A stretch of 64,000 nt of DNA from Escherichia phage EPIMRB01: the sequence record PQ657784; one strand, given 5' to 3'. The position numbers and the translations under genes were made by a program. Below the pieces are notes generated by a model. The model worked only from the letters and a program-made list of their open reading frames with translations, searched no databases and was not told the origin of the DNA. Shown here piece by piece: positions 37,991 to 39,057 of this stretch (position 1 is its first letter; each line of letters starts with the position of its first letter).

Positions 37991-38851
37991 TTACACCGCC
38001 ATCTTTCCTTTAATTGGCGGGTGAGATACATAGTTTTTAAGAACAAAATCATGTGGCTTTGCGAATTGACTCAACCAAAATACCTGCGATTCTGTGTTCC
38101 ATTCATCAAATTCATCTGGAAATTTTAATTGTAATTCGCATAAATCCATAGGTTCACGACGCAAAATTTCTTTACATTGTTCTACGTGATTCATATAGAT
38201 ATGAGTATTACCACCAGAAAATATCAAATCTCCTGGAATAAGATTACACATCTTAGCTACAATATGAACTAACGTAGCATATGATGCAATATTAAATGGA
38301 AGACCGAGGAAAACATCTACCGAACGTTGATACCACTGCAAATCCAAATAGCCATTACGCACATTAAACTGATAGAACATATGACAAGGTGGTAATGCCA
38401 TATATTTAAGTTCAGCTGGATTCCATGCAGAAACAATTTGACGCCTATCATTTGGTAGTTTTTTAATACGATCAACAACTTCTATAATTTGGTCTACACC
38501 ACCAAAATCGCGCCATTGTTTTCCATAAATTGGACCAAGTTCACCACTATGGTATCCTAAATCTTTTGCTTGATTTTCGTAATTTTCATCCCAGACTGTT
38601 TTGCCTTGAATTAATGAATCATGTTGAATTAATCGCAAATCATTGACATTTGTGCTTCCCGATAAAAACCATATTAGCTCAGCAATGCAAGCTTTCCAGG
38701 CGAGCTTCTTAGTCGTTACTGCAGGAAAACCTTTAGTTAAATCCCAGCGTAATTTAGTACCGAACAAAGCAATTGTTCCTGTGCCTGTTCGGTCATCGGT
38801 TTCATAGCCATTTTCCAGGATATCTTTAATTAAAAATTGGTATTGTTTCAT
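37991..38851 (-). CDS. td: Thymidylate synthase, uninterrupted
   Basis: 286 aa from ATG ([10 protein letters not shown]...); ORF-track start is a TTG extension; DRTGTGT and catalytic PCH motifs; single continuous ORF. Confidence 0.93.
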   Translation of the reverse strand: MKQYQFLIKDILENGYETDDRTGTGTIALFGTKLRWDLTKGFPAVTTKKLAWKACIAELIWFLSGSTNVNDLRLIQHDSLIQGKTVWDENYENQAKDLGYHSGELGPIYGKQWRDFGGVDQIIEVVDRIKKLPNDRRQIVSAWNPAELKYMALPPCHMFYQFNVRNGYLDLQWYQRSVDVFLGLPFNIASYATLVHIVAKMCNLIPGDLIFSGGNTHIYMNHVEQCKEILRREPMDLCELQLKFPDEFDEWNTESQVFWLSQFAKPHDFVLKNYVSHPPIKGKMAV

Positions 38852-39057
38852 TAGTTCATCCAAGAATATGTAGAAGGATATTTGGCAAAGTTAGGCTTAT
38901 ATCCTAATTTAACCATTTGTTTTGCTTTGCGAGTAAATCCTAAAGAACGCTCACCTTTAAGATATTGTTTTGGTGTCATAGGCCCTTGATGCATCTGCCG
39001 ACAAATAAAAAGGGCCATAGCATTAGGAACATCCTTAACTTTTAATTTATTGCTCAT
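38851..39057 (-). CDS. Small basic protein encoded between frd and td
   Basis: 68-aa ATG ORF; ATGA overlap with frd stop and TAATG overlap with td start. Confidence 0.55.

Follow-up and report, generated by a model that had tools for sequence, protein, structure and literature searches.

We analysed a 64,000-nt stretch of DNA from Escherichia phage EPIMRB01 (PQ657784), hereafter called the window, and identified a small gene, ORF68, at the junction of frd and td. The genes on the minus strand run in the order 32, frd.3, frd.2 and, further along, frd, ORF68, td, nrdA.2, nrdA.1 and nrdA. The features of the junction are as follows.

39054..39638, minus strand: frd (dihydrofolate reductase), the coupled gene upstream of ORF68
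38851..39057, minus strand: ORF68, 68 codons plus TAA; a phrog_9550 member with a predicted product of 7.9 kDa, pI 10.3 and three helices
37991..38851, minus strand: td (thymidylate synthase), 286 aa and without an intron, the coupled gene downstream of ORF68
39054..39057, minus strand: ATGA, combining the frd stop (TGA) and the ORF68 start (ATG); T4 joins frd and td by the same tetranucleotide
38849..38853, minus strand: TAATG, overlap of the ORF68 stop and the td start, as read in the sequence
38856..38861, minus strand: GGATGA, within the final ORF68 codons (Trp-Met-Asn)
39054..39058, minus strand: upstream copy of an AATGA direct repeat, bordering a 206-nt block that is missing from T4
38848..38852, minus strand: downstream copy of the AATGA repeat, at the other border of the 206-nt block

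The first-pass annotation of this DNA had described a 68-aa ORF between frd and td, its start overlapping the frd stop and its stop overlapping the td ATG. Both points were confirmed: the ORF lies at 38851..39057 with an identical translation, on the minus strand, which that annotation had not given, and the ATGA and TAATG overlaps lie at 39057..39054 and 38853..38849. No promoter-like or terminator-like sites were found between frd and td, the closest terminator being the one that follows gene 32, and frd, ORF68 and td therefore have the arrangement of coupled genes. Any expression of ORF68 would thus come from the polycistronic pre-replicative message. There is no recognisable Shine-Dalgarno sequence upstream of the ORF68 ATG. 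The GGA of GGATGA, which ends 7 nt upstream of the td ATG, may act as a weak Shine-Dalgarno-like element for td, and the record of phage Marfa carries an annotated ribosome-binding site for td at the equivalent position. No second copy of ORF68 was found within the window. Escherichia phage AUBRB02 matches the window at 100% over 701 bases, and ORF68 is called a "hypothetical protein" there.

The chance of a 68-codon open frame at the local base composition is P ~0.0055, and the comparative evidence for a gene is much stronger than this figure. Pairwise dN/dS for ORF68 was 0.04-0.28 (Nei-Gojobori, 8 sequences from five T4-like lineages), which is comparable to the values for td (0.04-0.15 where unsaturated). 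Between the window and Marfa, for instance, there were 21 synonymous changes over 40 sites and 21 non-synonymous changes over 164 sites. The length of the protein stays within 68-70 aa in the five lineages, with zero frameshifts and with indels confined to one loop. Shigella phage sb4 (L017), which has a truncated ORF68 and a td divided between two CDSs, was excluded from the selection analysis, as these breaks most likely reflect an assembly or sequencing error and not biology. A bias towards synonymous substitutions had been proposed beforehand as the check on whether this is a genuine gene or a chance ORF. The coding interpretation survived that check, and the overlapping junctions are also kept across genera. 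We therefore regard ORF68, with high confidence, as a real, selected protein-coding gene.

The same constraint bears on the possibility that ORF68 works in cis only, simply carrying ribosomes from frd to td and supplying the td Shine-Dalgarno sequence, so that its peptide sequence would be irrelevant. The ATGA and TAATG overlaps and the placement of GGATGA 7 nt ahead of the td ATG would suit such a role. However, the strong constraint at the amino-acid level, the occurrence of 43%-identical proteins in phages where no td follows, and the ability of T4 to couple frd and td without any spacer all speak against it. This reading is already disfavoured, and we consider it very improbable.

A search with the phrog_9550 HMM placed ORF68 in this family with E=1.3e-45 and 154.5 bits, residues 1-68 aligning to profile positions 1-68 of 68. 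ORF68 is thus already catalogued and is not new. The family is labelled "unknown function" in the database, and ORF68 appears as "hypothetical protein" in ~134 phage records; membership explains no mechanism, since no function has been assigned to the family. With ORF68 as query, tblastn returned 237 phage records, of which 134 reach at least 90% identity. The family is very small: clustering at 50% identity gave 11 clusters among 1.84 billion representatives, and clustering at 90% identity gave 40, all of 42-108 aa. All members checked for genomic context or source name were from phages. Literature searches covering the frd-td junction, phrog_9550 and RB32ORF229c revealed no mention of ORF68. 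In the record of Yersinia phage PYPS2T (NC_054944 / MH809535) the ORF68 homologue is named 'flagellar biosynthesis protein', a name for which we found no support. Two of the shortest members, P0018 and P0043 (42 aa, 62% query coverage), are truncated calls that apparently start at an internal Met.

The gene immediately precedes td in Tequatrovirus, Dhakavirus, Marfavirus, Kanagawavirus and Serratia phage 4S. Identity of the homologues to ORF68 is ~80% in the Klebsiella marfaviruses, 68% in Enterobacter phage CIP9 (Kanagawavirus) and 60% in Serratia phage 4S. The homologue overlaps td by TAATG or TGATG in Marfa, PhiKpNIH-6, pzk-kv8 and 4S, and by GTGA in CIP9.

We then compared the junction with that of other T4-like phages. 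The T4 genome (NC_000866) has a 4-nt overlap of frd and td (td at L005:5236..7113, frd at 7110..7691), so the direct overlap that the earlier annotation had cited is correct; Purohit and Mathews reportedly described the T4 ATGA overlap in 1984. When the window was aligned with the T4 junction, the flanks were near-identical and the window contained an extra 206-nt block with AATGA at both ends. The block is 206 nt and not 204 nt because the td ATG begins 206 nt past the ORF68 ATG, and the T4 match, which spans 458 nt against 664 query bases, agrees with this length. Most tequatroviruses aligned by megablast in two pieces with ~417 nt of other sequence in between. This stretch corresponds to a 115-aa ORF, RB32ORF229c (phrog_1928), which is found in T2 (L014:1798-2145), T6 (L023:3973-4320), Bas43 (L015:1798-2145), RB14, RB51, AR1 and others, and which is spread over 581 records. 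In Marfa, CIP9 and 4S, phrog_1928 ORFs of 117-126 aa lie between frd and the ORF68 homologue. The junction was thus found in four states, the fullest with both genes and three reduced ones in the tequatroviruses.

T4 type: empty; at least 31 records among the matches listed, mostly T4 stocks, RB55, RB59 and close kin
T2/T6 type: phrog_1928 only; 363 records at 90% identity or more
Window type: phrog_9550 only; ~134 records; AUBRB02, pSs-1 and ACG-C40 are phages of this type
Both genes: frd-phrog_1928-phrog_9550-td; Klebsiella, Enterobacter and Serratia relatives (Marfa, CIP9, 4S)

ORF68 had been presented in the first-pass annotation as an extra gene relative to T4. It is not an addition to a T-even norm, for two reasons. 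Although T4, T2 and T6 all lack ORF68, T2, T6 and most RB phages hold a different gene at the junction, and the empty state of T4 is itself in the minority, with at least 31 records among the matches listed against 363 and ~134. The frd-td junction is a multi-state locus at which T4 is atypical. An obligatory pairing of ORF68 with phrog_1928 was considered and rejected, as neither the surroundings of the distant family members nor the rest of the window contained a phrog_1928 homologue. Records of the BASEL collection call the phrog_1928 ORF a 'putative homing endonuclease', and a Pfam search revealed neither a nuclease nor any other domain in it. In Escherichia phage 132 (L016:1782-2058) the phrog_1928 slot appears degraded, with a 39-aa fragment and an ORF annotated on the opposite strand; it may be a pseudogene on its way to an empty, T4-type junction.

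The sequences at the gene boundaries suggest how these states could be related. The junction is modular, and sequences of the AATGA type recur at these boundaries; they would allow a cassette to be removed by deletion between short repeats, each time regenerating an ATGA overlap. A deletion from AATGA to AATGA in the window type, if it took place, would yield exactly the T4 junction, and the boundary between phrog_1928 and the ORF68 homologue in Marfa likewise reads AATAATGA. Most simply, then, the T4 overlap would be the end state of cassette losses, a direction suggested by outgroups and repeats rather than by a reconstructed phylogeny.

Gains by recombination are possible too, as shown by dhakavirus JS10, which shares the following segment with the window.

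38796..39067, minus strand: 272-bp exchanged patch comprising ORF68, ~10 nt of frd and ~55 nt of td (L007:2991-3262 in JS10)

The patch is 97.4% identical in the two phages against 80-83% in the flanks; by gene, nucleotide identity between the window and JS10 is 79% for frd, 75% for td and 97.6% for ORF68. In other dhakaviruses, such as QL01, only td matches the window. The JS10 values point to a recent lateral exchange between genera by recombination. The patch ends within conserved frd and td sequence, as would be expected for homologous recombination and not for a dedicated mobility mechanism. In the GenBank record of JS10, ORF68 is unannotated and a gap is left between frd and td.

Free-standing homing endonuclease genes (seg, mob) insert between conserved genes of T-even phages, and ORF68 could in principle be what remains of such an element, for example the DNA-binding tail of a seg/mob-type enzyme. 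Its intergenic site, the richness of this T4 region in homing endonucleases (I-TevI, MobE, SegG), the short direct repeats at its borders and its lateral transfer would fit such an origin. On the other hand, Pfam gave no GIY-YIG, HNH or NUMOD signal for ORF68 or for 31 family members, hhalign probabilities were 0.1% against I-TevI and 1.6% against MobE, and the reading frame is intact and constrained in every lineage. The ends of the exchanged patch in conserved frd and td are also those of ordinary homologous recombination, and none of the 40 clusters (42-108 aa) contains a longer relative fused to a nuclease domain. With Pfam and hhalign both negative, a remnant of a homing endonuclease or of its DNA-binding module was rejected, and a mobile-element origin of this kind appears exceedingly improbable.

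Phage PM136 (L008:3207-5083) carries ORF68 alongside a td group I intron with I-TevI, whereas the window has ORF68 and an intronless td, so that the presence of ORF68 and that of the td intron are independent. Other small genes vary in the same region. Three small ORFs lie between frd.1 and frd.2 in the window (39893-40841) and are absent from T4 (phrog_3566, phrog_1254 and phrog_4423, all labelled as function unknown). The window also lacks RB32ORF231c, a gene found immediately ahead of frd in T2, T6 and PM136. The interval from gene 32 to nrdA is a mosaic of small uncharacterised genes. In AUBRB02 (L006:1-2834, equivalent to the window below ~37433) a 392-aa ORF begins ~51 nt after nrdA; if this is taken as an uninterrupted nrdB, mobE and nrdB.1 would be absent, unlike in T4.

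More distant relatives of ORF68 were found outside the T4-like phages. Proteins of 43% identity occur in Phapecoctavirus (phAPEC8 and many others; subfamily Stephanstirmvirinae), and even more distant homologues occur on uncultured phage contigs. In phAPEC8 and six distinct metagenomic contigs the homologue lies within long arrays of small uncharacterised genes, and neither td nor frd is beside it in any of these seven contexts. The only neighbours that could be recognised encode RNA ligase, a PIF1-type helicase, a DnaB-like helicase, an HNH protein and a Tad2-like protein. The sequences AAGGAGG, GGAGG and GAGGTG are found as strong ribosome-binding sites upstream of the homologues in phAPEC8, L009 and L011. 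The Tad2-like (anti-Thoeris) gene lies on one uncultured-phage contig (L012:206-739), ~4 kb from the distant homologue, a single case that is not evidence of linkage.

These settings have consequences for a role of ORF68 in nucleotide metabolism, one of the functions suggested in the first-pass annotation. Its product might bind Td, Frd or the T4 dNTP-synthesising complex and tune dTMP synthesis, its position beside td being maintained for co-translational assembly. Consistent with this, the gene lies immediately upstream of td and overlaps it in all five T4-like lineages, it would belong to one transcription unit with frd, td and nrdA, and the JS10 patch carries the first ~55 nt of td along with it. 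The adjacency in five lineages could reflect a td-linked function instead of inherited synteny. However, the association with td or frd is limited to the T4-like phages and is not seen in Phapecoctavirus or on the six uncultured phage contigs, and the same pathway works without ORF68 in T4, T2 and T6. Since the distant homologues are not beside td, a role specific to Td or Frd is disfavoured; the suggestion of a nucleotide-metabolism accessory is weakened by their placement in small-gene arrays, and we consider it quite unlikely.

The predicted product of ORF68 is a protein of 7.9 kDa with a pI of 10.26 and a net charge of ~+10.6. AlphaFold (AF2), run on an alignment of 31 sequences only that reached down to 26% identity, gave a model with pLDDT 84 and pTM 0.61; an earlier run on 13 close sequences (pLDDT 55) was discarded in its favour. 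The model has helices at residues 13-24, 29-38 and 43-49 and extended N- and C-terminal segments. All indels of the family fall in the loop between helix 1 and helix 2, in agreement with the model. The 73-aa variant P0009 has a tandem duplication of five residues (TTPKH/MTPKQ) in the same loop.

A search with the model by Foldseek found nothing below E=4.6 in the PDB, and the sole match in BFVD was another phrog_9550 family member. There was no Pfam match to ORF68 at E<=10 and there were only scattered sub-threshold matches for the 31 family members, among them an uninformative one to DUF7838 (E=0.004) in two of the 31. NCBIfam and the defence proteins of PADLOC gave no meaningful match to ORF68. 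Of two profile searches of PDB sequences, one gave a single chance match (Dickkopf-2, E=0.9) and the other gave none. An RNA element in the region was also considered and rejected, since the single Rfam match, tmRNA, scored 14 bits, far below its gathering threshold of 84. The search by BLAST, HMM and structure prediction that had been recommended beforehand identified a phrog_9550 member and yielded a model of pLDDT 84, with no match outside the family itself in Pfam, NCBIfam, PADLOC, the PDB or BFVD. No known DNA- or RNA-binding fold, including helix-turn-helix, matched the model, and ORF68 cannot be filed under helix-turn-helix proteins, homing-endonuclease remnants or any known binder. The earlier suggestion of a nucleic-acid-binding protein amounts to a guess from charge (pI 10.3), as Pfam and Foldseek revealed no DNA- or RNA-binding motif or fold.

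Taken together, the explanation that we favour, and consider reasonably probable, is that ORF68 is a genuine but dispensable phrog_9550 accessory gene, carried in the pre-replicative frd-td-nrdA unit, whose product is proposed to act in trans as an early factor. That it is dispensable follows from its absence from T4, T2 and T6. Ribosomes that finish frd would reinitiate at the ATGA on ORF68 by termination-reinitiation; this is suggested because ORF68 has no good Shine-Dalgarno sequence of its own and because the ATGA is the one that T4 uses for td. They may then be passed on to td through TAATG, potentially aided by the Shine-Dalgarno-like GGA within the Trp-Met codons of ORF68. Both the reinitiation and the hand-over are plausible as judged from the arrangement of the codons.

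The small, very basic (+10.6) and compact three-helix product would then act in trans early in infection, perhaps through a polyanionic or host partner that it binds, and would contribute conditionally to host takeover or fitness. Its size, charge and dispensability, the settings of its distant homologues and a distribution that is patchy and marked by exchange suggest that it is a small trans-acting binder of such a partner, with a conditional role in fitness, host takeover or anti-defence. This reading is tentative, and we would put it slightly short of an even chance. The product is probably neither an enzyme nor a dedicated subunit of Td or Frd.

Within this reading lies the narrower possibility that ORF68 encodes an anti-defence or host-takeover effector directed against one particular host factor, of either immunity or housekeeping, which it neutralises. 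It would account for the patchy, laterally exchanged spread among unrelated virulent phages and is consistent with the presence/absence polymorphism inside one genus, with the recombinant patch across genera in JS10 and with the small-ORF arrays in other phages, which resemble early-gene regions and in one contig include the Tad2-like gene ~4 kb away. However, no similarity to a characterised protein was found, and the PADLOC search was empty; we regard this narrower reading as unlikely. A broader speculation, doubtful but a little easier to entertain, is that phrog_9550 represents an uncharacterised fold of small basic early effectors that pass between unrelated virulent phages of enterobacteria (Straboviridae, Stephanstirmvirinae and uncultured lineages) and neutralise a specific host factor or defence. 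Such an activity would account for both the polymorphism in Tequatrovirus and the recent copy in a dhakavirus.

In conclusion, ORF68 is a further example of a small conserved phage protein without an assigned function that was already present in the databases, and the most useful by-product of our analysis is that the frd-td junction emerges as a locus with several states. Although this gene cluster is referenced to T4, no arrangement is less common among the sequenced relatives than the T4 frd/td overlap; T2, T6 and most isolates carry a gene there. Those who annotate or engineer the operon from the T4 template should be prepared for one or two additional coupled genes. The phrog_9550 protein is compact, confidently modelled, without a structural relative, dispensable and laterally exchanged, and these properties make it a tractable choice when phage accessory genes are screened against host factors or defence systems.

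Several known systems offer a comparison with the accessory role that we favour for ORF68. T4 encodes small, non-essential early proteins, such as Ndd, Alc and MotB, that bind host macromolecules. ORF68 resembles these in its small size, dispensability and pre-replicative context, an analogy only, which concerns the way in which it may work. Like the seg and mob genes, it varies in presence between conserved genes and has spread laterally, but it has no nuclease or NUMOD motif, is only 68 aa long and is under purifying selection as a complete protein. In comparison with the frd/td overlap of T4 (M12742, NC_000866), the 3' end of frd is the same in the window, and so is the ATGA for translation restart; in T4 it is td itself that restarts there, whereas in the window it is ORF68, and td is reached 206 nt later by a second overlap, TAATG. 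The phrog_1928 gene RB32ORF229c occupies the same junction, is likewise without an assigned function and is bordered in T2 by a short direct repeat, TAAATGAAA (9 nt). Its sequence is unrelated to that of ORF68, it is far commoner, as its 581 records indicate, and in T2 it is separated from its neighbours by gaps of 20 and 45 nt, unlike ORF68 with its overlaps. The closest comparison is with the other phrog_9550 members. The proteins of Marfa (YP_009850431.1), CIP9 (YP_009855949.1) and phAPEC8 (YP_007348396.1) have the same length and share the motifs NKxKV..VP, R20, K34, G40, M48 and LGYxP, and in the T4-like phages Marfa and CIP9 the gene is in the same place, upstream of td. ORF68 of the window differs from these proteins in nothing substantive and is a member of their family.
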